From IMG/VR virus record IMGVR_UViG_3300045988_081432, positions 1-64,000 of that record: 64,000 nucleotides of DNA. The stretch is one strand, 5' to 3'. Position numbers and translations under genes: made by a program. This document shows positions 3,313 to 62,452 of the stretch, piece by piece. This DNA is from a virus. The notes under the pieces were generated by a model. It did not search any database, was not told the origin of the DNA, and worked only from the letters and a program-made list of their open reading frames with translations. How positions within the stretch are numbered: the first letter of the stretch is position 1; each line of letters starts with the position of its first letter.

Positions 3313-3756
3313 TTAACCTCCATAACGGCAATAGTAATCTACGATTGACTTATGACTAATTTCATGGTCTATATTCCAAGTGCTATGATAAGCGTTTTTC
3401 CAAGGGTCTTGTTTGGTGACAATTTGTGCTAAAGCACTTGTAGAATATTTGGACAAATAATCAAGCATATCATTCATAAGTTGTTCGTCTTTCCGATTAT
3501 TAATCTTATTTTTGAATTTATCTGGTGGAATCACCCCACAGCCATAATAGAAATATTCGTGATAAACCTCTTCAACGACTGGGCCAAAATCCCAAGCAAG
3601 CAACTTTTCATTATAGCATGGTTTTTTCTTGTTTGCAAGAAATGTCACCTGTAAAAAATACATTTGTTTTGCAAGACGAAGATTGTTGGTTAAACGTCCT
3701 TGGGTATTCTCGTACCAAATAATATATTCTGCGACATCAAGTGCTTTGTAAGCCAT
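3313..3756 (-). CDS. Panacea / DUF4065 (SocA/GepA-like) domain protein
   Basis: N-terminal pattern ALDVAEYII...LTNLRLAKQMYF...LLAWDFGPVVEEVYHEY matches the DUF4065 consensus (KLQKLLYF...AW.yGPV..evY) as I recall it. ATG at 3756 with GGAG RBS. Confidence 0.65.
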   Translation of the reverse strand: MAYKALDVAEYIIWYENTQGRLTNNLRLAKQMYFLQVTFLANKKKPCYNEKLLAWDFGPVVEEVYHEYFYYGCGVIPPDKFKNKINNRKDEQLMNDMLDYLSKYSTSALAQIVTKQDPWKNAYHSTWNIDHEISHKSIVDYYCRYGG

Positions 3757-3764
3757 ATTATTCT

Positions 3765-4022
3765 TTACTCCGTAATGCAACGATTGCTTAGTTTCTTATA
3801 AACATCCTCGTATAGCTCACCTTTATCTCCGTTAAATGTGTATTCTGCGAGAGTATTATCTACTTTATTGCTAACGATACACTTCCAGTTTTGGAGAGTT
3901 TTACAAGACCATACAACAAAAGTGTCATTAAACGCAATCTTTACATCGCCAAATTTATAATTCCAAAGAATATATTCTACACGGCACTTATCCTGAAACT
4001 CACTCATGCTACTAATTTTCAT
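3765..4022 (-). CDS. hypothetical small phage protein
   Basis: 85-aa ORF with RBS GGTGA. The VWSCKTLQNWK...YTFNGDKGELYEDVYKK block resembles a small conserved Firmicutes-phage family (recollection only). Confidence 0.5.
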   Translation of the reverse strand: MKISSMSEFQDKCRVEYILWNYKFGDVKIAFNDTFVVWSCKTLQNWKCIVSNKVDNTLAEYTFNGDKGELYEDVYKKLSNRCITE

Positions 4023-4067: not shown

Positions 4068-4571
4068 TTATTCACAATATAACTTAACTAAACCGTCTCT
4101 TAGTGTCTCTTTTAAATCAATTACTCTTTGATTTCTACTCCCACGCCATTTTAGAGTAATATCATGCTGAGATTTAATATATTCCCCATCTACTAAGACA
4201 TCAATATATTTAACAATCTCTTGAGTATCACTTCTATTCATTACTTCCTCATACTCATATCCAGTCCAACACCAAATATCTTTTTGAGGGAACTTTTCTT
4301 TTACTAATTTAACAAGGCGAGTAAGTTCTGGAATATTCTCTTTCTTTAGTGGGTCTCCACCACTAAGAGTAAGACCAGAAATATAATCGTGGTTTAGATA
4401 ACTGAGAATTTCATTTACTGTGTCGTCAGTAAACTTGCTCCCGTAATTGCTGTCCCAAGTTTCAGGATTTTGACATTCATCACAACAATGGTCACAACCA
4501 CTTACCCAGAGAACAACTCTTACTCCCTCTCCATTTGCAATGTCGTATTTTGTTATCTTAGCATAATTCAT
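4068..4571 (-). CDS. nrdG: anaerobic ribonucleotide reductase activating protein (radical SAM)
   Basis: GCDHCCDECQNPETW Cys cluster near the N-terminus and LSGGDPL motif. TAATG overlap with the nrdD stop; RBS AGGAG. Confidence 0.8.
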   Translation of the reverse strand: MNYAKITKYDIANGEGVRVVLWVSGCDHCCDECQNPETWDSNYGSKFTDDTVNEILSYLNHDYISGLTLSGGDPLKKENIPELTRLVKLVKEKFPQKDIWCWTGYEYEEVMNRSDTQEIVKYIDVLVDGEYIKSQHDITLKWRGSRNQRVIDLKETLRDGLVKLYCE

Positions 4572-7500
4572 TACTGGACTCCTAGATGAACAACTCGCTC
4601 TTTAATCTCTTGTGTGCGACCTTGATTCCAGTCATTAGTACCAAGATAACCACAAGTTCTACGCACGATGTTCATTTTTGATTTATCACGATTTTTACAA
4701 TTTGGACATTCCCAAACTAGCTTACCATCATCATCTTTTACGATTTGGATTTCTCCGTCATAACCACAGACCTGACAGTAATCACATTTGGTATTTAGTT
4801 CTGCATACATAATGTTGTCATAAATAAACTTGATTACAGAGAGAACAGCCTCGACATTATTATTCAAGTTAGGTATTTCTATATAACTTATGGCACCACC
4901 CGGAGATAGTTTCTGAAATTCGCTTTCAAATTTCAATTTTGTAAAGGCATCAATCTTTTCGGTTACAACAACATGATAAGAGTTTGTAATATAATTTCTA
5001 TCTGTAATACCCGGAATAACACCGAAACGCCTCTTTAGGCACTTGGCAAACTTGTATGTAGTGGATTCGATTGGGGAGCCATACAAACTATAATCAATGT
5101 TTTCAGAGGCTTTCCATTCATTACACTTATCATTCATGTATTGCATGATTTCAAGTGCGAACGGTTTTGCTTCATCACTTGTATGACTCTTGCCAGTCAT
5201 AGCAAGAACGCATTCGTAGAGACCAGCATATCCTAGACTAATGGTTGAATAACCGTCATACAGGAGCTTATCAATCTTCTCTCCTTTCTTTAGACGAGCA
5301 AGACCTCCATGTTGCCAATGAATTGGAGATACATCTGATAGAGTACCAAGAAGTCTATTATGGCGAATCTGTAGCGCCCTGTGACACAACTCAAGACGTT
5401 CGTCAAAAATCTTCCAGAACTTATTAAAATCTTTGTTTGCACTTAAACCGACATCTGCAAGATTAATAGTAACAACGCCTTGATTAAAACGTCCGTAATA
5501 CTTCTTTCCCTTAACCCAGTTATTAGCATTCGCTAAATTCTCTGTCGTGCGGTCAGGAGTTAGGAACGAGCGACACCCCATACAGGGGAAGCAATCACCC
5601 TTATATTCCAGCATTTTCTTTTCTGAAATATAATCTGGAACCATACGCTTTGCTGTACATTTAGCGGCAAGCTCTGTTAGATAATAATACTTATCTCCCT
5701 CATGGATATTATCTTCTTCTAGTACATAAAGAATCTTTGGGAATGCAGGAGTAATCCATACCCCCTGTTCATTTTTAGTTCCTTCAATTCTTTGCTTTAG
5801 AACCTCTTCAATGAGCATTGCGAAGTCGTCTTTTTCTCTGCCATCATTTACTTCATTTAGATAAAGGAAAATAGATACAAATGGTGTCTGCCCATTAGTC
5901 GTCATCAAAGTATTAATTTGATACTGAATTGTCTGGACTCCGCGTTTAATTTCTTCTTTTAGACGACCTTCTGTAATCTCATTAATCTGTTCATCCGTAG
6001 CATTTGAATTTAACAGAGCAACTTCTTCCATTACTTGCTTTCTGATTTTCTTTCTGCTAACGTCAATAAACGGAACAAGATGAGCTAATGATTCGCTCTG
6101 GCCTCCATACTGATTGCTCGCAACCTGTGCCATCACCTGAGTCGCAATATTGCAAGCAGTTGCAAAACTATGAGGCTTCTCAATTAGAGTACCGTTAATC
6201 ACAGTACCATTTTGGAGCATATCTTCCAGATTAATTAGGCAACAGTTTCCAGTTATAACGCCGCCGTCAAGAGTAAAGGAATGTGTTTCTGGCTCTTCGA
6301 CGCACCAAGCATCATATTCAATCTCTGGACGATAAGGCGTAATTTTCTTTACGACCCATAAATTGTTTGTATTTTGATATTTTCTGAACCGGAAGTTAAT
6401 TAGTCTAGCGTTTTTCTTAAAGTTTGTGTCATGGACAGTTTCGGATTCGCTTGCAATATAAAATCCCGCGATAGAGGAAATATCACGAATCATTTCTGCA
6501 ACTCGGTCATCAACGGTAGAGACTCTATTGGTATCAACAGCTCCATCTGCCGCATAAAAACCATCAAAAAGAAATTGCTTTCTTTTTCCATTTAGGAAGC
6601 GCCATGCTTTGGCGTTCAAGAAGTCTTGCTTAAAAGCGTTCTTACACAAAGCGTAGGCATCTCCATGATAAGATTCTGGATATGTGACAGTGTAACCAGC
6701 CCTTACAAAGTAATCTACATATACTGATTTTTCTCCACATAAGCGAACTGTTGTATACCCGGATTTCTTATCAACGCCGTCTCCAATCGCAAAACCAATA
6801 GCCCATGCTTGGTAGTCTTCTTTTGACTTCATTTCATATTTAGACAATTCAGGTAGAGACGCGAGAACCATTCCTTCTTTTAAATTCGTCGTTACACTTC
6901 CGTCATTTAATAACCATCTGTGATTGGAGGTACAGAGGACGTGCTTAATTGAACGACCGGACTGAATCATAACATCTTGCATTTTTTGTTTTCCGTACTT
7001 TTTTACGGTAGCAATATGCCATTCGCCATCAGAGCCAATAACCTTAACAGTTTCACCATCATTAAAATCTCTAAATTCTTTTACGCCATCATCCGTTACA
7101 AAACGCGTGTTGCCCTTAAAACAGTTGTGCATCCGTTGAATCGCATAGTCAGAGTCATGAAAATGAATCAAGCCTTGCTCATGTGCTTCACGAATGTCTT
7201 TTGGAAGAATCAGACGATTTACAATATCACGGCTTACTTCACCAGCAATATAATCACGTTGCGTAGCTGCAATTTTAGGATTCTTGTTACTGTTTTCTTG
7301 AATTACATCTTCATTTACGCCATCAACAATAGACAAAATTTTACCATCAGTCGTATTACCGTTTCTAGCAAGCTGGCGCTCATAACGATAACGAATATAC
7401 GTTTTTGCGACATCATAATAACCGCGTTGCATCAGAAGTGATTCAATTGCATCTTGAATATTTTCGACAGATACGGCGCAATCTTGTGCTTTAAAATTAT

Positions 7501-7651
7501 TATATACTTCTGTGGCGATTGTCTGAATTGCAATCTGCGGCATCGCTTCCCCACCGCTTTTTTCTACCTCGTCGCTTGCTTTTTGAATTGCAAGCGTTAT
7601 CTTTCCTTTTTGGAACTTGTCTTCACGACCATCACGCTTAATTACATTCAT
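4571..7651 (-). CDS. nrdD: anaerobic ribonucleoside-triphosphate reductase (class III), intein-containing precursor
   Basis: ATP-cone-like N-terminus (VIKRDGREDKF), C-terminal Zn ribbon CDYCQVCG...CPNC and glycyl-radical motif RRTCGYLG. 1026 aa, of which 293 aa are an insertion. Confidence 0.9.
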   Translation of the reverse strand: MNVIKRDGREDKFQKGKITLAIQKASDEVEKSGGEAMPQIAIQTIATEVYNNFKAQDCAVSVENIQDAIESLLMQRGYYDVAKTYIRYRYERQLARNGNTTDGKILSIVDGVNEDVIQENSNKNPKIAATQRDYIAGEVSRDIVNRLILPKDIREAHEQGLIHFHDSDYAIQRMHNCFKGNTRFVTDDGVKEFRDFNDGETVKVIGSDGEWHIATVKKYGKQKMQDVMIQSGRSIKHVLCTSNHRWLLNDGSVTTNLKEGMVLASLPELSKYEMKSKEDYQAWAIGFAIGDGVDKKSGYTTVRLCGEKSVYVDYFVRAGYTVTYPESYHGDAYALCKNAFKQDFLNAKAWRFLNGKRKQFLFDGFYAADGAVDTNRVSTVDDRVAEMIRDISSIAGFYIASESETVHDTNFKKNARLINFRFRKYQNTNNLWVVKKITPYRPEIEYDAWCVEEPETHSFTLDGGVITGNCCLINLEDMLQNGTVINGTLIEKPHSFATACNIATQVMAQVASNQYGGQSESLAHLVPFIDVSRKKIRKQVMEEVALLNSNATDEQINEITEGRLKEEIKRGVQTIQYQINTLMTTNGQTPFVSIFLYLNEVNDGREKDDFAMLIEEVLKQRIEGTKNEQGVWITPAFPKILYVLEEDNIHEGDKYYYLTELAAKCTAKRMVPDYISEKKMLEYKGDCFPCMGCRSFLTPDRTTENLANANNWVKGKKYYGRFNQGVVTINLADVGLSANKDFNKFWKIFDERLELCHRALQIRHNRLLGTLSDVSPIHWQHGGLARLKKGEKIDKLLYDGYSTISLGYAGLYECVLAMTGKSHTSDEAKPFALEIMQYMNDKCNEWKASENIDYSLYGSPIESTTYKFAKCLKRRFGVIPGITDRNYITNSYHVVVTEKIDAFTKLKFESEFQKLSPGGAISYIEIPNLNNNVEAVLSVIKFIYDNIMYAELNTKCDYCQVCGYDGEIQIVKDDDGKLVWECPNCKNRDKSKMNIVRRTCGYLGTNDWNQGRTQEIKERVVHLGVQ
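6245..7123 (-). mobile_element. intein with LAGLIDADG homing-endonuclease domain inside NrdD (aa 177-469)
   Basis: Host sequence MHN|C...GN|CCLINL. Block A CFKGNTRFVTDDG, block B TSNH, LAGLIDADG motifs AIGFAIGDG and LFDGFYAADG, C-terminal ...HSFTLDGGVITGN followed by Cys+1. Confidence 0.85.
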
Positions 7652-7682
7652 GCAACCAGCCTTTCTAAAATTTAACAGATAA

Positions 7683-7901
7683 TTAATCTTCTTTTAATTC
7701 TTGTTGAGCTAGTGCAACATTCGCCCACATAGTACATTCTTTGAGCTTTTCAAATGCAAGTTGCTTACTCTTACCCTTTGGAAGCTCACTTAGAATTTTA
7801 CTTAGCCGATACGCTTCCTGAGAAATATCTTCATTCAGTTCACGGCCCTTGTCTGAAAATTCTACTGAGTAAAACAAACGACTATCAAACGACAATAGCA
7901 C
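7683..7901 (-). CDS. hypothetical protein
   Basis: 72-aa ORF, first gene downstream of the minus-strand promoters. AGGAG RBS; start is GTG 7901 or TTG 7895. Confidence 0.5.
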   Translation of the reverse strand: MLLSFDSRLFYSVEFSDKGRELNEDISQEAYRLSKILSELPKGKSKQLAFEKLKECTMWANVALAQQELKED

Positions 7902-7983
7902 CAGCTCCTTTCAATTTAACAAGAAATAAATACTCGAAGAAAATCAGTTAGGCTCCCGACTTCCTTTCTGACCTTCTACAAGT

Positions 7984-8012
7984 ATTATATCAAAACAGAA
8001 TGATTTTGTCAA
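7984..8012 (-). promoter_or_regulatory. consensus sigma-70/sigma-A type promoter P1 (minus strand)
   Basis: Minus strand reads TTGACA (8012-8007), 17 nt, TATAAT (7989-7984). Confidence 0.7.
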
Positions 8013-8084
8013 TATGTAAATTACACTTGTAATAGTTTTGTAACTATTGTATATACTTACCCATCATCTGTTATTCTATATAAT

Positions 8085-8112
8085 ATTATACTCAAGAAAA
8101 AATATTTGTCAA
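8085..8112 (-). promoter_or_regulatory. consensus sigma-70/sigma-A type promoter P2 (minus strand)
   Basis: Minus strand reads TTGACA (8112-8107), 16 nt, TATAAT (8090-8085), exactly 100 bp upstream of P1. Confidence 0.65.
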
Positions 8113-8160
8113 TATACTTTATGTGAGTGTAATAATTTTGTAATCTTTATACGTTTCTAC

Positions 8161-8442
<282 letters not shown>

Positions 8443-8518
8443 GTTCGGTTGATTTAAGAATGAATCCGCCCATTCTATAGTATTATATCATAATTCTTGT
8501 TAAATTGCAAGACTATAA

Positions 8519-8539
8519 TTGATTACAATTTGATTACAA
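8519..8539 (+). promoter_or_regulatory. tandem TTGATTACAA boxes upstream of the plus-strand promoter
   Basis: TTGATTACAA at 8519-8528 and 8530-8539 (11-bp period). Related boxes lie upstream of both minus-strand promoters (8138-8145, 8038-8045). Confidence 0.45.
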
Positions 8540-8552
8540 AGTAACAAAAACC

Positions 8553-8581
8553 TTGACTTTTTCTGTTAAATTTGATAAAAT
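8553..8581 (+). promoter_or_regulatory. sigma-70/sigma-A type promoter for the plus-strand gene block
   Basis: TTGACT (8553-8558), 17 nt, TAAAAT (8576-8581), 25 nt upstream of the 8606 ATG. Confidence 0.65.
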
Positions 8582-8605
8582 ACTTAAAAGAAAGGGGGCC
8601 TGCGA

Positions 8606-8797
8606 ATGAGTAAGTGCCATCGTTGCGATGCTACTTGTAGGTATTTCCCAGCAGAAGCCAGTAAGATTTTAGATGAATATTTTGATGCTTATGGTGTCAA
8701 ACATAGGGAGTCTATTTTCTCGTGCTGGTATGATGGGCATCGTATTACAAAATATGAAGACTGCGTTAATTACAAACCAAGAAAGGGTAAGGTGTAA
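8606..8797 (+). CDS. small Cys-containing hypothetical protein
   Basis: 63-aa ORF with RBS AAAGGGGG. Stop lies 2 nt before the next start. Confidence 0.5.
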   Translation: MSKCHRCDATCRYFPAEASKILDEYFDAYGVKHRESIFSCWYDGHRITKYEDCVNYKPRKGKV

Positions 8798-8799
8798 GT

Positions 8800-11625
8800 T
8801 TGTCAAAAATTGACCTATTCTATACTTTGAAATTAAACACGTCTGATATTTATGAACAAATTGCAAAAAATGGTTGCGTTGAAACAGACTTTAAAACAGC
8901 GAAGAATGCTGGCTGGGTGGTTGCTCTTGGTGATAATCAACTACTAAGATTTATTCGTCAGATTAAGGATAAACCTTTTGATAAAGAAAAGGTTCAAACT
9001 CTTTATGATAGGCGCAATATTTTAAAGCAAGACAAGAGTTCTAAGAAGAACGTAAGAGAAATTACAAAGATTCAGAATGAAATCAACGAACTACTATTTG
9101 TTCCAGACCTTGTGACAGTTAGAACTGATACTACGCAGAAGGATTATAAGCAGCTATGCAAGACTGGATTCTCTGTTAAATTTAAAGTGAATGATACAGA
9201 GTATGTAACAAAATATAAGCGTTTATGTGCTGGTGCTGGTCAGTTAAGAAAGAACTCTGCTAACTTTGTAAATGCAGAAATTTATGACCAGTTACTCAAT
9301 ATTATGCTTTGTGGTCTTGACGCAAAAAGTATAGGCAAGATTAATCTTGCTAAATTTGGAGCTTATCTTGCGCTGTCTACTTCTGCTACTAAAGTTGTTA
9401 AAACACCAAGAATCTGTGTTATTGACGATTATGAATATCCTTTAAAAGACCAAGTTGTTGATTGGATTTTCAAAAATGAAAAAGGTGAAGACGATATCAG
9501 AGCCGAGAAAATTGATTTTACGATGAACGCTTTTGACGGAGCTGGTATGGTTTGTCCCGAAATGGCTGAGAGATGGCAACAAGACTTAGGTCTGGATTAT
9601 TTACCATCAAGCTTTATTGTTCGAGCCGCATGGTTTAAAGGCGTTGCAAATTGCTTTGACTTTAGACGTTTTGCTCATGAGGTTGCCCATAAAGACACAA
9701 TTGTAGACATCTATGGAGTAACATATAATATTGACGACATTGATGTTATAGCAACAAAAAGTCAATTTAAACTGTGGAATAGATACCCTAATTTTCAGAT
9801 GTATCTAAGTTACTTCAAGAGATACGGTCATGTTTTTGGTATTGCGCGAGTAAACAAGCCAGAAAGTCAATTTGTGACAACTCTTAATTATCAGTATTTG
9901 CAAAGTAACAATTTCACAAAGGATTCTATTCAGAAGATTGCGGAACCTACTGTTAATTGGTTAAATAAAACAATGACTTGTGACCCCTTATACACTTATC
10001 TTATGATGATTGGTTATCATGAAGGGAATACAGTAGAACAACTTGAAAGAAAGGTGGATTCTTCTTTTGCAAAATGCCTTCTTTACAATATTGATATATT
10101 GAATGATGATTATGTTAGCAAAAAAGTAAAGAAACTAATTCAAACAAAGGTTGACCAAGCAAAAATCGGAAAGATTTATGTCGAGGGGTCTTATGACTTT
10201 TTGATTCCAGATTTATATGCTATGTGTGAACACGCATTCGGAATGGAAGTTCGTGGTTTACTTCCTGCCAAATGTATGTATTCAAAGCGTTGGGTAGATA
10301 AAGAAGCGAAAGTCATAAGTACACAACGTAGTCCTCTTGTTGCTCCTGCTGAGAATCAATTGCTCAATGTTTACTGTGATGATAAATGTAGGGATTGGTT
10401 TAGATATATTCAGTGTGGTAACATTTACAGTATTTGGGATTTAACGATTATTAGCCAATCCGATGCGGATTTTGACGGAGATATTGCAATGACCTCAGAT
10501 AATAAATATCTGGTAGATTCGATTGACCCAACTCTCCCAATTATTACTTATGAAAAACAAAAAGTTAAATCACAAAAAATTAATTTTGATAACTTAGGCT
10601 CTTTTGATGTAAAGAGTTTTGATAGTCCAATTGGAGGGATTACAAATCTCGCAAGTAATCTTTATGCTCTAAAAGAATTATTTGATAAAAATTCCAAAGA
10701 ATATGCAGAGATAGAAAAACGTATTAGAATGCTGCGTTTTTATCAGGGAACGGCAATTGACCATGCCAAGGGCTGCGTGTACAGCCCGCCCAACAAAAAT
10801 TGGTCTCATCGTCAGAAATACATTTCAATTACTGATAATATGACCGAAGAACAGAAACAAGAAGCTCAAAAACAAAACGAAAAAATCAAGTTCGAGAATA
10901 GTATTTGCTGTGATAAGAAGACTTATTTCTTTGGATACGTTTACCCACAGAAAATGAGAGAATTAAAATCTTATAAGAAAAGATATAAAAATCTTTGTAG
11001 GATGAAGTTTGGAATGAAGCTTCCAGAACTTCAAGGTAAAGAAGATAAAACAGAACAAGAAAAGAAATTTATCCGTGATTATTATAAATATATGCCACTA
11101 TTTAATTCTAATTGTGCGATGAACAATCTTGCCAAATATATTGAAGATTTTGAATTTAGTAAGAACAAGACGGAAAAATATTTTGATTATTCTTGTCTAA
11201 TGTCAGATAGAAACAGAGAGTTTAAGCCAGCCATTTGCAAGAAAATTAAAACTATCATTACAGATTTCAAAACAAGTTATGCAGTTTACACAAAGTCTTA
11301 TTGTTACGACAGGGATTATAATTTCTTTTCTGACGCAGCCAAAGAAAATAGAAGTTCATATTTTGATGAGCTGTTTAACAATTTCAAAGAAATTCTTGAA
11401 GAAGTTTTATCTAACGAAGAAGAGCTTGTTGATTATATGATTTATGTGTATTACAATCAACTCCCTTCTGTAGATAGGGTTTTGCTCTGGCAGGTTTATC
11501 CAGATGTAATTCTAAATAACGTAAAGAAAAACTCCAAATGCCATTATGAACTTGAAGAATCGGATGATGGTCAAGATTTTTTTGGAAAGAAGTTTGTTTT
11601 GAAGGAGGTTCAGAATGACGTTTAA
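8800..11625 (+). CDS. single-subunit two-barrel RNA polymerase, RDR/QDE-1/YonO-like
   Basis: Three blocks in the order seen in eukaryote-type RdRPs and SPbeta YonO: AFDGAGMVCPEMA (about 9529), PSSFIVRAAWFKGVA (about 9610-9650), and TQRSPLVAPAE followed by SDADFDGD (DADFDGD at 10462-10482; compare NADFDGD of beta-prime). TTG start. Confidence 0.7.
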   Translation: MSKIDLFYTLKLNTSDIYEQIAKNGCVETDFKTAKNAGWVVALGDNQLLRFIRQIKDKPFDKEKVQTLYDRRNILKQDKSSKKNVREITKIQNEINELLFVPDLVTVRTDTTQKDYKQLCKTGFSVKFKVNDTEYVTKYKRLCAGAGQLRKNSANFVNAEIYDQLLNIMLCGLDAKSIGKINLAKFGAYLALSTSATKVVKTPRICVIDDYEYPLKDQVVDWIFKNEKGEDDIRAEKIDFTMNAFDGAGMVCPEMAERWQQDLGLDYLPSSFIVRAAWFKGVANCFDFRRFAHEVAHKDTIVDIYGVTYNIDDIDVIATKSQFKLWNRYPNFQMYLSYFKRYGHVFGIARVNKPESQFVTTLNYQYLQSNNFTKDSIQKIAEPTVNWLNKTMTCDPLYTYLMMIGYHEGNTVEQLERKVDSSFAKCLLYNIDILNDDYVSKKVKKLIQTKVDQAKIGKIYVEGSYDFLIPDLYAMCEHAFGMEVRGLLPAKCMYSKRWVDKEAKVISTQRSPLVAPAENQLLNVYCDDKCRDWFRYIQCGNIYSIWDLTIISQSDADFDGDIAMTSDNKYLVDSIDPTLPIITYEKQKVKSQKINFDNLGSFDVKSFDSPIGGITNLASNLYALKELFDKNSKEYAEIEKRIRMLRFYQGTAIDHAKGCVYSPPNKNWSHRQKYISITDNMTEEQKQEAQKQNEKIKFENSICCDKKTYFFGYVYPQKMRELKSYKKRYKNLCRMKFGMKLPELQGKEDKTEQEKKFIRDYYKYMPLFNSNCAMNNLAKYIEDFEFSKNKTEKYFDYSCLMSDRNREFKPAICKKIKTIITDFKTSYAVYTKSYCYDRDYNFFSDAAKENRSSYFDELFNNFKEILEEVLSNEEELVDYMIYVYYNQLPSVDRVLLWQVYPDVILNNVKKNSKCHYELEESDDGQDFFGKKFVLKEVQNDV

Positions 11626-12370
11626 TGAATATGAACGTGCAGAAGAGCTTGAGGAAAAACAAAAGTTTTCAGATAACATCTATCAGGATGGGACTCTTCT
11701 TCTAAGATATTATAAAACAAACGGTTTTACAAAAGAAGAAGCAGAGCAAAAACTCTTTGTATTTTTCAAAAACATAAATGGTAAGATTAACGAAGAATTT
11801 AAGAAGCAATTTCTGTCTGATATTATGAATATATGGGATTCTGCTCAGATTATTGAAAACAATCCTGTATATTTTTATAAAGAAGAGATGGATGTTATAA
11901 GAACGATTAAAAGAAAAATTGAACGTAAAATTTTGTTTGCCCTTATGTATATTCAAAAAGCCTCTGGTCAAGAATTATTTGAAGCATCCGTAACGGACAT
12001 TAATAGGCTTTGTATTAAGAGGGTAGATTCTAATACAATGTACGATTGCTTGCATGAGTTGGAAGAAAATGGATTTACTAAGTATTCTAATTTTAAAGGC
12101 GAAAACAAGATACAGATTGTACATCCTTTGTTAAATTGTCACCATACATCCGAACCAGTTATTACAATTATTGATAAGCACAATATAATGAATTATTATT
12201 GGAACTATGTCGGAGAGGGAAAATTTGCTATTTGCAAGAACTGCGGTAAATTAGTCCCAGTCACTTCATTTCATGTTGATTATTGTGAAAAGTGTGCAAA
12301 AGAAAAGTACCTAGAGAAGAATGTAAAATACAATAAGAAACGCAATAATCTCAAAACAACGACCGAGTAA
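11615..12370 (+). CDS. hypothetical protein with C-terminal zinc ribbon
   Basis: 251-aa ORF, RBS GAAGGAGG, CKNCGK...CEKCAKEK at the C-terminus. Confidence 0.55.
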   Translation: MTFNEYERAEELEEKQKFSDNIYQDGTLLLRYYKTNGFTKEEAEQKLFVFFKNINGKINEEFKKQFLSDIMNIWDSAQIIENNPVYFYKEEMDVIRTIKRKIERKILFALMYIQKASGQELFEASVTDINRLCIKRVDSNTMYDCLHELEENGFTKYSNFKGENKIQIVHPLLNCHHTSEPVITIIDKHNIMNYYWNYVGEGKFAICKNCGKLVPVTSFHVDYCEKCAKEKYLEKNVKYNKKRNNLKTTTE

Positions 12371-12459
12371 TTTTCAAAAAATCTAGGAATGAAGCCACTT
12401 TTCAGACTTTTTATGCAAATTCTTATAATGAATAGGGAAACATAGAAAGTTACTATTTG

Positions 12460-12490
12460 CAGACCAGTATTTCGCTGGTCTGTTTTTTAT
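12460..12490 (+). terminator. Rho-independent terminator
   Basis: CAGACCAG / TATTTCG loop / CTGGTCTG followed by TTTTTTAT. Confidence 0.75.
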
Positions 12491-12541
12491 TTATGAGCAA
12501 GCGGAATTAAACAACCGCCCAAGTGAATTAAAAGGAAAATA

Positions 12542-13943: not shown

Positions 13944-14213
13944 ATGACTAGTTCTACTATTGTTAAGATGATTGCTGACAATACCGATTATACTCAGAAG
14001 GATATTAAGGCATTTCTAGCCGCTGCCGAACCTGTTCTGCTAGAAGCACTAAAGGATGGTGAGTCCTTTAAGATTATGGATGTCACTGTTTCTCTGACTG
14101 ATGTTGCAGAACGCACCGCTCGTAATCTACAGACTGGCGAGATGATGACCGTCCCTGCTCACAAGAAAGTTTCCTTTAAGCCCTCCAAGGCTCTCAAGGA
14201 AGCCGTAAAGTGA
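13944..14213 (+). CDS. hup: HU/IHF-family DNA-binding protein
   Basis: 89 aa. ERTARNLQTGEMMTVPAHKKVSFKPSKALKEAV is the typical HU arm and C-terminus. RBS AAAGGAG. Confidence 0.85.
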   Translation: MTSSTIVKMIADNTDYTQKDIKAFLAAAEPVLLEALKDGESFKIMDVTVSLTDVAERTARNLQTGEMMTVPAHKKVSFKPSKALKEAVK

Positions 14214-14568
14214 TTTAACCAAAGATTGATACACTGGTGTTTCGCCACCAATATTAAGTGCGAACCGTTATAAGCGGGTAATCCACCACCTAGAAACAGA
14301 AGAGTGGAGTTTTATGTTTAGTCGGTATGGAGACTTTAAACTCATGTAAAAAGTCACGGAATCGACTTAAAATTATCCAATGGTGAGCCACTACCAATAA
14401 GTGGGGAATTAAAAAAGCGGTAACTCTGCCGTGCAAACTATTTCTTAAATTATTAGCGGGTGCAACGCTTAGAATATTGCACACTTGTATGTATTCTACC
14501 GGATACTGCTGGACATGGTTTGCTAAAATGAATATCGCTGGCATACCGATTAAAGTATGCTTATATGT

Positions 14569-14645
14569 CGCAGAATAGCCCAATCAGGTACGGCGCTTGG
14601 CTCATACCCAAGAGATTCTTCGTTCAAATCGAAGTTCTGCACCCA
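14569..14645 (+). tRNA. tRNA-Met (anticodon CAU) with encoded CCA and a C1:A72 mismatch
   Basis: Cloverleaf folded by hand. Acceptor CGCAGAA/TTCTGCA (6 bp plus C:A). D arm GCC/GGC with a GG loop. Anticodon stem CTTGG/CCAAG with loop CTCATAC. 5-nt variable loop. T arm CTTCG-TTCAAAT-CGAAG, then C-CCA. Confidence 0.8.
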
Positions 14646-14701
14646 ACAACAGAGAAATAGGATTCTCTGTTAAATTTAAAAGAAAAAGAGGATTTTCTAT
14701 T

Positions 14702-18655: not shown

Positions 18656-19047
18656 AGGGTAAATTATATGAAAAATATTGTAAGAAATTTTCTGTTGCTA
18701 TCGTAGTATTTGTGACTACATTTATCACAGTTTATTATTCTGTTGTGTATGCAACAAAGAAACAGATTGTATTTGATGGTTCTGATATTCTAATAATTAT
18801 TTTCTTTGGCTTACTATCTTTGATGGTCGTGTTTATGCTACTTTATATCAATTCTAAATTAAACTCATTCTCTAATGCTCTATCTGATATTTCTAATAAG
18901 ATTGATATATCAGAAGAAAACATGATAAATTTAGAAAAGAGTACGCAGAGAATTATATTAAAGGAAGTAAAAGAGAATAGGGAATTTAAGGGAAAAATTT
19001 TAGAAAGGATTGAGCATGAAGAGAAATCCGAACAGCAATCGGAGTAA
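18634..19047 (+). CDS. hypothetical membrane protein; start uncertain
   Basis: Two hydrophobic segments followed by a charged coiled tail. No convincing RBS at GTG 18634. Contains copy 1 of the 76-bp repeat. Confidence 0.45.
   Translation: MDSQSQVKGKLYEKYCKKFSVAIVVFVTTFITVYYSVVYATKKQIVFDGSDILIIIFFGLLSLMVVFMLLYINSKLNSFSNALSDISNKIDISEENMINLEKSTQRIILKEVKENREFKGKILERIEHEEKSEQQSE
18867..18942 (+). repeat. 76-bp perfect direct repeat, copy 1
   Basis: ATTCTCTAATGCTCTATCTGATATTTCTAATAAGATTGATATATCAGAAGAAAACATGATAAATTTAGAAAAGAGT, identical to 19289-19364. Confidence 0.9.
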
Positions 19048-19297
19048 AAGATGGGTAGAAAGAAATTGCCTATCCTCTGATAGATGCGTGTCTTATGTAA
19101 AGGATTTATGTGAAGCTTATGGCATTAAATATAAAATTTCTGGCGATAAGCTTTTTGTGGATTCTGATGGGATTTCCTATCGGGTTTATCCTGACTATGA
19201 AAATATATGTATAATTGCAGTAAATAAAATAACTGGTGAGAAAAAATGGTATGACGGAGATTCATGTTGGGTTGACTTCATATTAGATATTCTCTAA
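19016..19297 (+). CDS. hypothetical protein
   Basis: ATG 19016 with RBS AAAGGA. The gene lies between the two repeat copies. Confidence 0.5.
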   Translation: MKRNPNSNRSKRWVERNCLSSDRCVSYVKDLCEAYGIKYKISGDKLFVDSDGISYRVYPDYENICIIAVNKITGEKKWYDGDSCWVDFILDIL

Positions 19298-19364
19298 TGC
19301 TCTATCTGATATTTCTAATAAGATTGATATATCAGAAGAAAACATGATAAATTTAGAAAAGAGT
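19289..19364 (+). repeat. 76-bp perfect direct repeat, copy 2
   Basis: Identical to 18867-18942. Overlaps the stop of 19016-19297 and abuts the promoter at 19366. Confidence 0.9.
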
Positions 19365-20138: not shown

Positions 20139-20744
20139 ATGGATATTTTTAGATATATTGAAGACGTATCTTATAAACTCGGTTTAAAAGTTGCAAATTA
20201 TTTCCATGAAGACAAGGATGGGATTGAAGAGACACAATATGGGATGTTCGCTATTTTGAGTTTCTTGTTTGAGTTTGGAACTGGACTTATTATATCTCTT
20301 ATTTTTGGATATGTCAAGTATTTTCTTGTATTTCAAATTACCTATTGTTTTCTACGTTCTGTTTGTGGTGGAGAACATTGCAAAACATTTGCATCTTGTT
20401 GGGCAGTAACAAACATTATCTCATTTGTTGGAAGTATGATAGCTATTTTATTATCCGTAAACAGTATGTTTGTAATGATTGGAGTTATTATTACATCTCT
20501 GGCATCTGTTGATATGTTTTATATTATTCCGAAACCAAGCGAAAATTCTCCTAGTAGAGGGAGTAGAGATATCGAGTTTAAAAGACGCTATATTGAGGGG
20601 ACTTGTGTGTTAATTTTCTTAGCTTGTATTTTGGCGTTTTTTGATATAAAGTTTGTTTCTGCTTCTATTTGCTCTGCTTATATTATGTGTTATATTATGC
20701 TATCTAAATATGGCGAAAAATTTATGACTCTATTTAAGTTTTGA
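20139..20744 (+). CDS. agrB: AgrB-family membrane peptidase (cyclic-peptide maturation)
   Basis: 201 aa, polytopic. LRSVCGGEHCKTFASC gives the R..GG.H-x6-C pattern (His80/Cys87), equivalent to AgrB His77/Cys84. Later IIPKPSENSP...FKRRY loop. Confidence 0.7.
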   Translation: MDIFRYIEDVSYKLGLKVANYFHEDKDGIEETQYGMFAILSFLFEFGTGLIISLIFGYVKYFLVFQITYCFLRSVCGGEHCKTFASCWAVTNIISFVGSMIAILLSVNSMFVMIGVIITSLASVDMFYIIPKPSENSPSRGSRDIEFKRRYIEGTCVLIFLACILAFFDIKFVSASICSAYIMCYIMLSKYGEKFMTLFKF

Positions 20745-22351: not shown

Positions 22352-22654
22352 ATGATGCTAGATGCGTGGCTAGAGGTCGTTAAACAGCGACGATAAATGT
22401 TGAGAAAACCAGTACATTACTACGGTATTGTATGGTTTCAAAACTAATTATGATTTATACAGCTGTATGTTAGTACGAGGCGCTGATGAATTTTAGTAAC
22501 CGTTTTTAAGTATTAAAGAATACGACCGTATAAACCATATAGAAATGTTTGTTGCTATGGCAACTATCCATAAGTAAAGATGCTTGTGGATAGTAACGAT
22601 GGCAATAAGTCATCGGCTGAATTAAAGGGGTATTTGGTACAGAAAGGAGTACAC

Positions 22655-23830
22655 ATGGAAGATAGTCTACTAAAGCGTAAGGACGAGACCGATAAGGAAT
22701 ATGGTTTACGTCTAGCTATCAATAAAGACGTATACGATATTAGCTGGTCTAAAATTTGTGACCTTATGTTTGAAGCAACTGGCGTAAGAAAAGACGAAAG
22801 TGCTTATCGTAAATATTATATGGCATTCCTTGATGGAGTTGATTATCAAAAGAATAAAGACCCGTCTGAACAAATGGACGAGTTAATGAATAAAGAGCTA
22901 GATATTAAATTAAAAACTGTCAAGATGCGGGATTATAAAGCAGCGCTTAACCGTGATGTTAATAAGATTGCTCGTTTTGATATGCTTAAACAAGACATTT
23001 CAGACTATGTTATTAAAAATCATTTGGAGTTTAATGATAATAAAAGCAACTTTTCATCAACCGAGAAGAGTGCTATTTTATGCCTATCTGATTTCCATTA
23101 TGGTATGGTGACTGATAATTATCTTAATAAATATAATCCTGAAATCTTCCATGAGCGCATGACCAAACTTTTTGACACAGTTGTTAAGAAGATTTATTCT
23201 GAAAAGATTGGTGCTCTGTACGTTATTAATTTAAACGATGCTATTTCTGGATATATTCATAATACTGTTCGGATTGAGAATCGTAAGAATGTTATTGAAC
23301 AGGTAATGGAAGTTTCTAATGCTTTGGCAGAGTTTCTAAATGGGCTTTCTCAACATTGTAATATTGAATATTATTCTGTTATTGATAATCATTCTCGTTG
23401 TATGGCTAATAAGTATGATAGCTTGCAAAATGAAAATTTTTCTCTACTTGTTGACTGGTATTTGAAAGCAGCTTTACATTATGTCCATAATATTCATATT
23501 AATGAGAACGAATTTGATAATGATATTTTAACATTTAGTATTTATAACTGGAATTATCTAGGCTCTCATGGAGACAAAGACAGTATTCATGATATAGTTC
23601 AGAATATGACGCTTTTAACCCATAAGTTCTATGATGCGATGTTTATTGCACATAAACACCATGTAGAGTCTAAAGAAGTTGATGGAACTATGGTTTTTAT
23701 GAATGGTTCTCTTTGTGGTACAGATAACTATGCAAAGTCTTTGCGTATCACTTCTCACCCTTCCCAGACTATGTATATTGTCACCCCTGATAATCCCTAT
23801 GAATCTATAAATATTATCCGTTTGGATTAA
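22655..23830 (+). CDS. calcineurin-like metallophosphoesterase
   Basis: Ordered motifs LSDFHYG, NLNDAISG, VIDNHS, GSHGDKD, AHKHH. ATG 22655 with RBS AAAGGAG. Confidence 0.6.
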   Translation: MEDSLLKRKDETDKEYGLRLAINKDVYDISWSKICDLMFEATGVRKDESAYRKYYMAFLDGVDYQKNKDPSEQMDELMNKELDIKLKTVKMRDYKAALNRDVNKIARFDMLKQDISDYVIKNHLEFNDNKSNFSSTEKSAILCLSDFHYGMVTDNYLNKYNPEIFHERMTKLFDTVVKKIYSEKIGALYVINLNDAISGYIHNTVRIENRKNVIEQVMEVSNALAEFLNGLSQHCNIEYYSVIDNHSRCMANKYDSLQNENFSLLVDWYLKAALHYVHNIHINENEFDNDILTFSIYNWNYLGSHGDKDSIHDIVQNMTLLTHKFYDAMFIAHKHHVESKEVDGTMVFMNGSLCGTDNYAKSLRITSHPSQTMYIVTPDNPYESINIIRLD

Positions 23831-28873: not shown

Positions 28874-28904
28874 TTATATGTTAAATTTAATGAAAGGAGG
28901 TGAC

Positions 28905-39279: not shown

Positions 39280-39304
39280 TTCCATGTTAAATTGGGTGTA
39301 AGAA

Positions 39305-44314: not shown

Positions 44315-45552
44315 ATGGCGCAATCTCAAAGTGATATTTTTAGTTTTCTAATTACACCTGAATTTGATACCAAAGGTGTCACTGACAGCGGAAAATATCT
44401 TGAAGAAGAAGTCAAGCAGATAGCAGAAAAGATATCAAATCAGATTAGCGAAGTCATGGGGAGGGGCTTTTCTTTCCCGAAAAATTTCAAAAAAGATGAT
44501 ATCAACGAAGTCACAAAACTAGTTGAAAGTTTAGGTGGCAGTGTAAAAAGAACTGGCGAATATATTACATCGTCTTTTAAGGATGCAAGCGGAACAACTG
44601 TAACGCTAAAGCAAAATTTAAAAGACGCAATAGATGTAGCAGAAGCAGAAAGCCTAAAGGCTGCCAAAAATATTCAAGAAGTAATCAACATAAGAAAAGA
44701 GTTTGAACAACTAAGAACTTCTACCGCTACATATTCTGGCGCAGAGCAAACCAAAGAGCAAAATCAACTTGAACAAAATATTATAAAAAGTATCGAAGAA
44801 CAATATAATTACCGACTAAAAATTATTGATGCTCAGAATAGTGGCAACAAAATTCAAGAGAACTATTATACAGAGCTTTTAAATATTGCAAAAGGCGAAG
44901 AACAGGTATACACAATTCAATATAACGGTTCTCAGAATAATATAAAATTTAAAAAACAAGAACTTGCACAAGAAGAACGACTCTATCAAAAAAAATCTGA
45001 TTCTGTAAAACAAGAAAATGAACTCGTTAATGCTATTAAACAGTATGCAAAACAATATCAGACTGTCAAGCAATTAGAGAGCAAAGGTCAACAAAACACT
45101 CAGGCTTATACTGATGCTAAAAATGCTTTACAGCAGCTAACAAATACTTTAACAACGTATGGTGTTAAAGTTGTAACAAGCTCCGACGGTACAACAAAAC
45201 TTGTAGCACAACAAAATTCAATGGCTGACAGCTCCAATAAGGTCAAAACAGCGTTGGACAATGCCAATGGCAGTTTAGCAAAAGCTGATACTGCACAAAA
45301 TTCCATATCGAAATCTATTCAGTCTAGTGTAGAGAATTTTATTAAATATCAGGTGGTTATGGAAGCCATCAACAAAATCACTAGCGAATTTACATCTGCA
45401 ATTTATGATATGAACCAAGCCATGACACAAGTTCGTATGGTTACAATGGGTAGCTATGAAGATACTGTAGCATTGGCTGATAGTTATACTAAATTGGCAA
45501 AGCAACTTGGTACTACTACGACCACGGTTGCAGAAGGCGCAGATGCTTGGCT
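44315..45552 (+). CDS. tape measure protein, exon 1 of 3
   Basis: Coiled-coil-rich ORF with RBS AAGGAGG. The frame runs into junk plus a stop right after ...GADAWL. Confidence 0.7.
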
Positions 45553-45920
45553 TAAATGTCTAGGTCAAGTAAAATCTCTCTAATTGCTGGAAAGTCCTTA
45601 GAGCTTTGATAACCAAGTTATTATAGTGATATAATAATGGCTGAACTAATCATTCAGGCATGGTAAAATAATCGAAGATTGGATAATCAGCAGCCAAGAT
45701 TCTTAAATATTTATAATAAAGCTATTAAAATATTTCAATAGATATGATATAATATTTAAGAATAAGGTTCATCGACTAATTGTAAGGGCAAGTGCTCTGA
45801 AACGGGAGATACCTTGTTAAATTTAACAGATAAAGATATAGTCAGAACTTATGTAGAAATACATAGAAAATCCTATATGGAATCTTTTGATAAGTGGCGA
45901 TTATTAAGAGTAACAAATTG
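45553..45920 (+). mobile_element. ORF-less group I intron 1 in the tape measure gene (368 nt)
   Basis: P1: exon CUUGGCU (45546-45552) pairs with intron GGUCAAG (45563-45569), with a terminal U:G. The intron ends in G (45920). Splicing gives ...ADAWL|RQGYNAQEAMEML. Confidence 0.65.
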
Positions 45921-46496
45921 AAGACAGGGTTATAATGCTCAAGAAGCAATGGAGATGCTAAAGCAGTCAACTACGTTGGCTGTTGTTGGTCAATTGGACG
46001 CAGCTTCTAGCACTGACCAACTTACGGCAATCACAAAATCCTATAATGTAGCTGTAGAAGATACAAGCAAAATCGTAGATAAACTTGTTGCGGTTGACTT
46101 AAATTATGCCGCTAGTACAGGTGAAATCTCTACAGCATTACAAAAAGTCGCTAGTTCTGCTGGACAGGCAGGGTTAGGGCTTGATAAACTAATCGGTCTA
46201 ATTACAATTTCCGAGGAAAAGACTCGACAAGCGCCAGAAGTTATTGGTTCCGCTTGGCAGAGTATTATCGCGCGTATAGGTAAAATCACAGCAAAAGTAG
46301 ATTTAGATGACCTTGTTGATGAAAATGGCAAGGTTGTGGCTACAATTAACGATGCTGATAAAGTTTTATCTAAATATGGTATCAATTTAGTTGACACTAG
46401 TGGTAAAATGAGAGACATGGGAACCATTATGGACGAAATCGGTGCTAAATGGGGTCAAATGTCTACTCTTGAACAAAACCAGTTGGCTTATGTGGT
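45921..46496 (+). CDS. tape measure protein, exon 2 of 3
   Basis: The frame is open from 45922 through the track ORF 45949-46521. The junction keeps the reading frame. Confidence 0.65.
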
Positions 46497-47532
46497 TTTA
46501 AGTAGCCACAATACGAAGTAATTCGTAGGTGTTTATAACACTACAACATTCCTATATCGGTGAACCCTAAGTTTGTACAAATAAGGGAATACCGAGATAA
46601 TTTTATTATGAAGGATGGTGGAAAAGGAATGGATTTTTATTCCTTGTCACAAGATGAAGTTTCAGTTATTTTAGGTGGGTTGCTTGGCGATTCATGTTAT
46701 AAAAAACGAGATAACGTCATCGTATTTTCTCACTCAGCAAAACAAAAAGAATATTTGTCTTGGAAACATGATATATTATCAGATATCTCGTCTGATATTC
46801 GCACAAGAGTAGTAGGAAAATCTATTATTACAGATGAAGAATTGGTTAATGTGTCATTTTCTACAAAAACAAATAAAAAATATCACTCCGATTATAACTC
46901 TATAAGAACCCTAATATTTTCCAACGGTAAAAAAACAGTCAATAGAAAATGGCTTAATATGCTCACACCTTTATCATTGGCCGTTTGGTGGATGGACGAT
47001 GGGTGCTTGTCCGTTCATAAGAAAAAAGATGGCGCTATTTCAAGATTTGGTAAATTAAGTACAAATGGATTCTCATACGAAGAGCAAAAAATTATGAAGG
47101 ATTATTTCAAGACGGTTTGGGATATTGATGTAAAAATAACCCCAGAAAAGGGAAATTATTTCTTGAGATTTACAGTCCCGAACTTAAAAAAACTATTCTT
47201 AATTATATATCCATTTGTAATGCAAGTGCCAGACATGATTTATAAGATAAATATGAAATATAAACTAGAAAAACTGAGTGATGACGACGAGTATAAAGTA
47301 ATACAAACTATTATATACGATACTCTCGATAATAAAAAATCGTAACGACTAAACGAGGAATGCTCCTTATATCAAACACATCTCTTATTGTTGGGATGTG
47401 TTTTGTTGTATAAGGATGAAAATATAGTCTGAACTATAAGGAAACTTATAGAAGAGCGGTCAAGTGTAAAGACACTTTTAAGGAGAACCGTTCTCGCCTA
47501 TTTTAATAATAGGTCACAAAAGTAACAGATTG
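46497..47532 (+). mobile_element. group I intron 2 in the tape measure gene, carrying a homing endonuclease ORF (1036 nt)
   Basis: P1: exon UGUGGU (46491-46496) pairs with intron GCCACA (46505-46510), with a terminal U:G. The intron ends in G (47532). Splicing gives ...QLAYVV|AGVRQRNVFIAAMEDY. Confidence 0.65.
46560..47345 (+). CDS. LAGLIDADG homing endonuclease (intron-encoded); start uncertain
   Basis: Two LAGLIDADG motifs: VILGGLLGDSCY and LAVWWMDDGCL. Confidence 0.75.
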   Translation: MNPKFVQIREYRDNFIMKDGGKGMDFYSLSQDEVSVILGGLLGDSCYKKRDNVIVFSHSAKQKEYLSWKHDILSDISSDIRTRVVGKSIITDEELVNVSFSTKTNKKYHSDYNSIRTLIFSNGKKTVNRKWLNMLTPLSLAVWWMDDGCLSVHKKKDGAISRFGKLSTNGFSYEEQKIMKDYFKTVWDIDVKITPEKGNYFLRFTVPNLKKLFLIIYPFVMQVPDMIYKINMKYKLEKLSDDDEYKVIQTIIYDTLDNKKS

Positions 47533-58154: not shown

Positions 58155-58203
58155 TACGCTTGTTACTATTTCGTTGTTAAATTATTTATAAGGAGTGGAT
58201 TTA

Positions 58204-60394: not shown

Positions 60395-60530
60395 ATTTTT
60401 AATGATTATTTAGACGCTTTCGCTTGTTTTATCTAAATGGCTCCAAGATAAAACAGACTTTTTATATTTTGGGATTGTTTGTGCTGCGCCCGATGTTCTA
60501 CTAGGCATTCGACGCTAGTGGAAAACGCTG

Positions 60531-60661
60531 ACTCTGGCAGCGGTTGGCGTGTTTTGTATGTTGGTGGTGATTGGAACGGTGGGTCGAATGCCGGTCTGTT
60601 CTATTTCAATGCGAACAATGATTCTAGCAACTCGAACTCGAACATCGGGGCGCGGCTACTT
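60531..60661 (+). repeat. DGR template region (TR)
   Basis: Invariant, adenine-bearing copy with AAC/AAT codons in the VR frame. Lies directly upstream of the RT. Confidence 0.85.
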
Positions 60662-60784
60662 GTTTATTCTCCGTTTATTATCGCACAAACTCTCCCGCAC
60701 CACTTGGTGAAAATATTGCCAATTAGGAAGCGAATTAGTAGGTTTATTCTCGAAAATTTGCGCGGCAAACAAGGAGATGTTTTT

Positions 60785-62411: not shown

Positions 62412-62452
62412 ATTTATTTGTTAAATTATTTATAAGAAAAGGAGATAATATT

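Follow-up and report, generated by a model that had tools for sequence, protein, structure and literature searches.

YonO-like proteins have been recognised in Firmicute phages since Iyer et al. 2003 and Ruprich-Robert and Thuriaux 2010 (PMC2919709), and YonO of the Bacillus subtilis prophage SPbeta was characterised in 2017 as a processive DNA-dependent RNA polymerase (RNAP) in which an Asp triad is essential (Forrest et al. 2017, PMC5467207). It is required for late transcription, in which it reads a single operon of 37 late genes from one start (168 coordinate 2225998) in the gap between yonN and yonK, upstream of an unannotated non-coding RNA; no other member of the phage branch has been characterised, and the preliminary description of the DNA treated here, which had introduced YonO as a DNA-dependent RNAP for late genes, agrees with that publication (PMC5467207). 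Here we analysed a stretch of 64,000 nucleotides of DNA from a gut virus (positions 1 to 64,000 of IMG/VR record IMGVR_UViG_3300045988_081432; in the following, the window), and we consider it highly probable that its gene at 8800-11625 on the plus strand encodes a YonO-type single-chain two-barrel RNAP, which is DNA-dependent and transcribes the late module of the phage. The window adds no new enzyme class, as the family is already known. Among known relatives of the cellular RNAP active site, the YonO-type enzymes are the smallest; they serve as models for the single-chain ancestor of these polymerases, and the question of how they find their promoters was left open by the 2017 paper (PMC5467207), with no later answer found in the literature that we searched.

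The eight universal residues of two-barrel polymerases comprise three Asp, an Arg and a Pro in one barrel (Rpb1 D481/D483/D485, R446 and P448) and an Asp with two Lys in the other (Rpb2 D837, K979 and K987) (Ruprich-Robert and Thuriaux 2010, PMC2919709). The open reading frame (ORF) at 8800-11625 is 941 residues long and uninterrupted (an intron-less allele), with a TTG start codon that has an AAGGTG ribosome-binding site 5 nucleotides upstream, and this start is supported by database homologues of 940-941 residues, since these cover 100% of the protein. As claimed before, it carries DADFDGD at 10462-10482, where the nucleotides translate to residues 555-561, a metal-binding loop with the predicted catalytic triad D557/D559/D561. 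The TQRSPLVAPAE motif and two further upstream motifs, which had also been pointed out, were located as well: TQRSPLVAPAE lies at 10321-10353 (residues 508-518, in the beta-prime-like barrel), while the beta-like barrel block at 9529-9648 (residues 244-283) consists of AFDGAGMVCPEMA (residues 244-256) and PSSFIVRAAWFKGVA (residues 269-283). In an alignment of 35 sequences down to 24% identity, YonO included, D246, G247, K280, G281, K324, R510, P512, D557, D559 and D561 are invariant and R275 is nearly so. Because these key residues are invariant across all 35 sequences, the motifs are not chance resemblances. R510-S511-P512 represents the universal R-x-P (Rpb1 R446, P448), some 45 residues upstream of the Asp triad. 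D246, K280, K324, R510, P512, D557, D559 and D561 together match the composition of the eight universal residues, with K324 as the probable second Lys of its barrel. Further downstream, YQGTAIDHAKG (10741-10773, residues 648-658) closes a long helix (633-655) and contains the invariant D654 and K657. The flanking strands (E541-543 and E562-566), together with the alignments to plant RDR2 and fungal QDE-1 described below, would place the DxDGD loop within a double-psi beta-barrel. In the mechanism we propose, the Asp triad would hold the catalytic Mg2+, R510 and P512 would be contributed by the same beta-prime-like barrel, and D246, K280 and K324 of the beta-like barrel would bind the nucleoside triphosphate, with both barrels in one chain.

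Membership of the YonO family, proposed earlier from the motifs, was borne out by direct homology. BLASTP aligned the protein with YonO at E 8e-40 and 29% identity over residues 138-622, the window SDADFDGD standing opposite LQFDNDGD of YonO so that the Asp loops coincide, with the FDGAG, SFIVRAAWFKG and RSP blocks paired too. By tblastn, yonO of SPbeta was matched directly (E 4e-33), as was yonO of all SPbeta-like phages (E 1e-32 to 1e-38), together with genes annotated as RNA-dependent RNA polymerase (RdRP) in Enterocloster, Thomasclavelia and Psychrobacillus phages. A profile of the 35 sequences found RDR2 in the PDB at E 1.6e-5 and QDE-1 weakly (E 0.023). In this profile alignment NaFDGqGlispelA...ipSsFiiRaafvKGl stands opposite RDR2 FSDGIGKISLAFA...VPSAFQIRYGGYKGV, and dsDfDgD opposite GGDLDGD; put as patterns, FDGxG...SxFxIRxxxxKG pairs with RDR2 FSDGIGKIS...SAFQIRYGGYKGV and DFDGD with DLDGD. 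The parallels with the eukaryotic RdRP blocks (FSDGxGKIS and the like, and the R.P....DxDGD arrangement), which had been drawn in the preliminary description, are thereby reproduced.

Structure prediction, suggested there for comparison with QDE-1 and RDR structures, gave an AlphaFold2 model with a mean pLDDT (predicted local distance difference test) of 87.7 and a pTM (predicted template modelling score) of 0.82, from a 23-sequence alignment as input. Foldseek returned 21 PDB matches with E < 1e-3, all of which are plant RDR2 or fungal QDE-1 (E 8e-18 to 2e-13, probability 1.00, template modelling score (TM) ~0.46, ~950 aligned columns), so that similarity to two-barrel polymerases, on which the earlier assignment had been made to depend, was found at both the profile and the structure level. 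Next in rank come beta-prime/Rpb1 chains of multisubunit RNAPs, which are weak and not significant (E 0.07 or worse), while in the viral library predicted phage 'RdRPs' rank best (E 2e-50). For this polymerase, the analysis thus establishes the family, the fold and the catalytic residues, as well as the layout of the operon and its synteny described below.

The likeness to SPbeta extends from the enzyme to its surroundings. Both phages have a single-chain two-barrel RNAP with aligned Asp-triad loops, and in both a small ORF, the RNAP gene, an HU gene and a non-coding gap are followed by YonJ/YonG-like and structural genes; the RNAP gene adjoins the genome opening in SPbeta and a divergent region in the window. 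The differences are that YonO has 839 residues as against 941, with N- and C-terminal thirds that can barely be aligned, and that its loop reads DNDGD where the window has DFDGD. In addition, the window has a translationally coupled ORF of 251 residues, of predicted winged-helix/zinc-ribbon type, after the RNAP gene, for which SPbeta has no equivalent, and the gap after HU holds a transfer RNA (tRNA) gene, or tRNA arrays in relatives, instead of the 1.7-kb non-coding leader of SPbeta. Finally, SPbeta is temperate, whereas the closest isolates of the window clade include a virulent Enterocloster phage.

Compared with the multisubunit RNAPs (beta/beta-prime; Rpb2/Rpb1), the window protein shares the eight universal active-site residues and the NADFDGD-like loop; however, it has both barrels in one 941-residue chain. 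No homology to the trigger loop, clamp or flap was detectable in it, which is likewise the case for YonO (PMC5467207). A weak Foldseek match was obtained to the PhiKZ non-virion RNAP subunit 7ogp_A (E 0.31), and the crAss enzyme was not among the 50 best PDB matches. Other phage two-barrel RNAPs are the virion RNAP of crAss-like phages (gp66 of phi14:2) and the non-virion multisubunit RNAPs of PhiKZ and AR9, all of them phage-encoded and sigma-independent; those of PhiKZ and AR9 are split beta/beta-prime homologues and not QDE-1-like single chains.

As the nearest solved structures are QDE-1 (2j7n, 7y7p-t) and RDR2 (7w82, 7rqs, 7eu0), it has to be considered that the window protein is an RdRP that copies or amplifies RNA of the phage or the host, as in regulation or counter-defence, without transcribing DNA. 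FDGxG, SxFxIRxxxxKG, RxP and DxDGD are the blocks shared with these structures. The Pfam assignment could be read in this way: ten of the 23 homologues (41-78% identity to the window protein) exceed the gathering threshold of PF05183 (RdRP), those at 41-51% identity scoring 46-73 bits over residues 110-690 (threshold 23.8 bits), and UniRef labels a close relative 'RNA dependent RNA polymerase'. Annotation names of this kind, however, simply derive from that of the Pfam family. Sequence identity to QDE-1 and RDR2 is 11-14% with a TM of ~0.46. QDE-1 and RDR2 are eukaryotic silencing enzymes acting on RNA templates, whereas in the phage branch DNA is transcribed, as YonO shows; QDE-1 also uses DNA templates. 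Since the one enzyme of this branch that has been characterised, YonO, is DNA-dependent and essential for late transcription (PMC5467207), and the window protein has both YonO-like sequence (E 8e-40) and a YonO-like gene neighbourhood, we regard an RNA-copying enzyme as very improbable.

Several results weigh against a DNA-dependent late polymerase of the YonO type, and they should be considered together. The structural neighbours are RNA-dependent enzymes, template preference is not revealed by sequence, and automatic pipelines give close relatives the RdRP label mentioned above. Identity to YonO is only 29%, confined to residues 138-622, and the C-terminal third is marginally alignable. As a single query the protein had no match to PF05183 at E <= 1 in Pfam (only a sub-threshold HEAT match; YonO likewise had no match to PF05183) and gave only noise against the PDB by phmmer, and the narrow 23-sequence profile found nothing in the PDB at E <= 10. 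No promoter used by the RNAP itself was identified in the window, and a ClpP-like protease (labelled head maturation protease in PHROGs) lies upstream of HU, so that the late unit may not have the same limits as in SPbeta. In PHROGs, the protein matched three families, all of unknown function.

With regard to expression, no large gene precedes that of the RNAP in the plus-strand block, as previously stated: after the divergent AT-rich region comes first only a small Cys-rich ORF of 63 residues (orf63, 8606-8797, plus strand, in the ORF list). This ORF occupies the position of yonP in SPbeta and had no Pfam or PHROG match; YonP homology was considered for it and dropped, there being no BLASTP alignment. 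A sigma-A-type promoter of the operon lies at 8553-8581 (plus strand; TTGACT, a 17-nucleotide spacer and TAAAAT, with a TG extension); in the promoter scan it had 10 of 12 consensus matches plus the TG, and it is conserved in the relative MT835481. At the other end, the ribosome-binding site (GAAGGAGG) and ATG of the partner ORF orf251 (11615-12370, plus strand) fall within the last codons of the RNAP gene, and a strong intrinsic terminator (12459-12492, plus strand; terminator scan, 10-bp stem and T-run) closes the orf63-RNAP-orf251 operon. The operon is bracketed by a host-type promoter and a terminator, and therefore the polymerase is most likely made early, by the host RNAP, which would transcribe the three genes from this ordinary promoter beside the divergent control region.

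The position of orf251 after the RNAP gene is kept in all relatives examined, and its homologues occur in this clade only, with no Pfam family. Its AlphaFold2 model (pLDDT 84) has three helices and a beta-wing at about residues 100-168, followed by a C-terminal CxxC-x13-CxxC zinc ribbon. None of its Foldseek matches is significant (best E 0.04), but DNA-binding proteins of the winged-helix type make up nearly all of the top 50. Fur/Zur/PerR, which likewise join a winged helix and a Cys4 zinc site, rank first among them. It is plausible, going by the model, that orf251 encodes a DNA-binding cofactor or regulator.

In the divergent region, gene strand and GC skew both flip at ~7950-8600. Leftward transcription has two perfect sigma-70-type consensus promoters (TTGACA-N16/17-TATAAT; 8112 to 8085 and 8012 to 7984), and the leftward (early) arm begins with an Acb2/Tad1-like gene, followed by NrdD and NrdG. 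The product of the first of these genes (7683-7901, minus strand, downstream of both promoters) contains the Acb2/Tad1 hairpin domain PF24729 (E 2.6e-7) and is likely an anti-CBASS or anti-Thoeris nucleotide sponge. Between the two arms, positions 8180-8420 are of low complexity and extremely rich in A and T, with runs of (TA)n, and here the GC skew changes sign, and the MT835481 scaffold starts within the matching stretch. The SPbeta genome opens for packaging just upstream of yonP-yonO, and many phage records begin a few hundred bases before the RNAP gene; the location of the window RNAP gene next to an AT-rich divergent region matches this opening. The stretch at 8180-8420 may be an origin or packaging region, its position corresponding to the SPbeta pac opening.

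Downstream, an HU gene had been claimed at 13944-14213 as a parallel to yonN beside yonO, and this plus-strand gene does encode an HU-like DNA-binding protein homologous to YonN (PHROG 379, E 4e-25; BLASTP to SPbeta YonN, E 1e-15). It is followed by a non-coding gap of 485 nucleotides (14214-14698), syntenic to the yonN-yonK gap of SPbeta, which contains a conserved stretch (14380-14568), a tRNA-Met gene (14569-14645) and, at 14668-14676, 25 nucleotides before the next ORF, a copy of the 9-mer TGTTAAATT discussed below. The ~190 nucleotides before the tRNA-Met gene are ~97-100% identical to MT835481, exceeding the conservation of the neighbouring genes. The RNA of the gap at 14214-14568 had a fold z-score of only -2.6 and no Rfam match. 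A lone 16-nucleotide exact match to SPbeta (14235-14250) is not kept in MT835481, and we treated it as chance. In this clade, tRNA genes occupy the gap that separates HU from the late genes, with one tRNA-Met in the window, eight tRNAs in relative L003 (11147-12342) and three in relative L004 (7196-8821). Small ORFs separate the tRNA-Met gap from a YonJ-like exonuclease (22580-23830, plus strand; BLASTP to YonJ, E 6e-40), which opens an SPbeta-like late module and is followed there by a terminase-like ORF and by genes for portal, tape measure and tail (PHROGs). YonJ_N and YonG_N Pfam domains are present in relatives, and relatives at 42-58% identity retain the order NrdD/NrdG, small ORF, RNAP, an ORF of 230-290 residues, ClpP, HU, tRNAs, YonJ and YonG.

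By analogy with YonO, the window enzyme would be the processive DNA-dependent polymerase of this downstream module (tRNA, YonJ/YonG-like genes, terminase, portal and tail), which would imply a DNA template, late-gene specificity and insensitivity to inhibitors of the host RNAP. Its start site would probably be in the non-coding gap after HU. Published primers bracket the SPbeta start site to 8910-9104 of sequence L001, and the primer sequence was not found in representative genomes.

The 9-mer TGTTAAATT is the top 9-mer of the window in an order-2 Markov scan (z ~16), with 28 copies where 2.5-2.8 are expected, a number that was reached in 0 of 100 shuffles. Copies left of 7950 are all on the minus strand and those to the right mostly on the plus strand, that is, they are co-oriented with the genes; examples are 7669-7677 and 7913-7921 (both minus strand), 8498-8506, 8564-8572, 14668-14676, 28879-28887, 39285-39293, 58175-58183 and 62419-62427. 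About 12 co-oriented copies fall in the ~6 kb of intergenic DNA, usually right after a stop codon and 0-10 nucleotides ahead of a Shine-Dalgarno sequence, and copies on the sense strand of genes are enriched about six-fold. The complete genome of the 78% relative has 19 copies against 2.6 expected, while L003 and L004 have none and L005 has one; in more distant relatives, enriched motifs share the TTC(T) left flank (TTTAGATT in L003 and L007, AAGCTAAAG in L004) and stand partly at orthologous positions, such as the spacer of the sigma-A-type promoter in both the window (8553-8581) and L003. Among side observations, other words are over-represented in the window too, namely TTGTTGATG (14 against 0.97 expected) and GATGTTAAGG (5 against 0.08). 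A Chi-like reading of TGTTAAATT was rejected by reasoning, given that it is AT-rich and clustered beside ribosome-binding sites. An extended -10 element (TG-n-TAAATT) fits the sequence, but several copies would then start transcription inside or after the Shine-Dalgarno sequence.

The abundance of TGTTAAATT, its co-orientation with genes on both arms, its enrichment in the 78% relative and the similar-looking motifs of distant relatives, some at orthologous positions, could be taken to mean that the RNAP transcribes most of the phage genome from TTCT-TGTTAAATT, with orf251, translationally coupled to it and predicted to resemble DNA-binding proteins, as a possible specificity factor. We find this unlikely. 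The motif precedes early and late genes alike, among them the RNAP operon itself and early-type genes (Acb2/Tad1-like, nrdD) that host-type consensus promoters already serve; one copy (8564-8572) sits in the spacer of the sigma-A-type promoter, an operator-like placement also seen in L003; a distance of often 0-6 nucleotides from the Shine-Dalgarno sequence leaves no space for a normal leader; and two copies run straight into terminator hairpins. Moreover, SPbeta shows no enrichment of TGTTAAATT, and the Foldseek matches of orf251 are, as stated, not significant. It is likewise doubtful that RNAP and orf251 form a two-component transcription system reading a lineage-specific TTCT-TGTTAAATT, or TTTAGATT-type sequences in relatives; if they did, a promoter and a specificity factor would be known for the first time for a YonO-type (QDE-1-like) DNA-dependent RNAP.

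The same placements fit a motif that has nothing to do with the RNAP, being either an RNA element near the ribosome-binding site (the target of a translational repressor or processing nuclease) or the operator of a phage DNA-binding regulator, such as orf251, acting on transcription by the host RNAP, and to this we would give an even chance. The tight link with the Shine-Dalgarno sequence on the sense strand, the occurrence before both early and late genes, the copy in the promoter spacer in two lineages and a copy within the 5' leader that follows the perfect 8012-to-7984 promoter all speak for it. Nevertheless, the window yielded no candidate for an RNA-binding protein or nuclease, no precedent is known in this phage group, and the six-fold enriched genic sense copies are unexplained by a purely intergenic function. 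As to a sigma factor that might read TGTTAAATT, none was found among the window ORFs tested, in a search that was not exhaustive and with ~11 kb of the genome lying outside the window.

Independent information on the polymerase comes from interrupted relatives. While the window copy is uninterrupted, 59 of the 120 best RNAP homologues are truncated, and exon mapping by tblastn placed inserts after codon 555 (L007), 557 (L006), 559 (L002, which is MT835481) and 560 (L009), that is, at four positions within six codons (18 nucleotides) of the catalytic loop. A second insert site, used in L007 and L008, falls near codon 650/651 within the invariant YQG.AID motif. The inserts were mapped to 2088-3035 in L002, 2350-3272 in L006, ~5642-6180 and ~6466-7130 in L007, ~5945-6620 in L008 and ~4557-4934 in L009, and in every mapped relative the joined exons encode a full protein in which DxDGD is complete. 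Rfam identifies the two inserts of L007 as group I introns (71.6 and 50.1 bits). Those of L002, L006, L008 and L009 had no intron match in Rfam and are probably introns too, judging by the restoration of the exons and, for L002, also by its U|...G| boundaries and endonuclease ORF: that insert, of 948 nucleotides, follows an exon-terminal T, ends in G and encodes a NUMOD4 + HNH_3 endonuclease. Many database entries are of half length because intron insertion leaves exon-1 products. Targeting by introns and homing endonucleases is typical of essential, highly conserved sites; introns and homing endonucleases hit the Asp-triad codons here, and they therefore provide independent evidence of strong constraint on the loop. 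No report of introns in yonO-like genes was found in the literature searched. Elsewhere in the window, a group I intron (RF00028, 69.5 bits) lies at 45510-45866 (plus strand) between the ORFs 44315-45583 and 45949-46521; it probably splits a tail gene, the second ORF being a phage minor tail protein (PF10145).

The RNAP family comprises 2,904 cluster representatives at 50% identity (E <= 1e-3). YonO-type enzymes are abundant in gut phages, and the window belongs to a clade without a cultured representative closer than 30% identity: its RNAP is at most 30% identical to any cultured-phage protein in the collection searched, and it is 78% identical to a protein encoded on an unannotated human-faecal scaffold. 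No relatives were found in representative bacterial genomes, which were scanned with two peptide patterns. For the promoter question, this clade offers as handles an operon in which a host-driven RNAP is joined to a partner that putatively binds DNA, the syntenic region after HU as a candidate for the start, and an oriented motif that is strongly over-represented.

Some other features of the window should be mentioned as well. Near its right end, a pair of 131-nucleotide repeats with 89% identity (60227-60357 and 60531-60661) has its first copy at the 3' end of the tail gene 58195-60369, as the variable region, and its second copy downstream, as the template region; together with an RT-18 RNA at 60698-60776 (Rfam, 68.7 bits) and a reverse transcriptase ORF at 60479-61945 (PF00078, E 1.7e-9), this forms a probable diversity-generating retroelement. 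On the leftward arm, NrdD (4571-7651, minus strand) has 1026 residues compared with 695 in L003, with its Pfam NRDD match in two stretches. The insertion of ~330 residues, which starts with CFKGNTRF after ...RMHN and ends in ...VITGN before CCLIN, looks like an intein by its sequence, and a weak Intein_splicing match was seen in the NrdD of a relative. A SocA/Panacea antitoxin domain is encoded at 3313-3780 (minus strand; PF13274, E 7e-10). The gene at 20139-20744 (plus strand) encodes a homologue of AgrB, the accessory gene regulator peptide-processing protein (PF04647, E 3.5e-24), which suggests a quorum-sensing module in the phage, and on the strand opposite to it there is a perfect consensus promoter (20317 to 20289). 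Finally, amid small ORFs, a perfect direct repeat of 76 nucleotides occurs at 18867-18942 and 19289-19364, 422 nucleotides apart, and its second copy is immediately followed, from 19366, by a near-consensus promoter (TTGACA-17-TATATT with TG).

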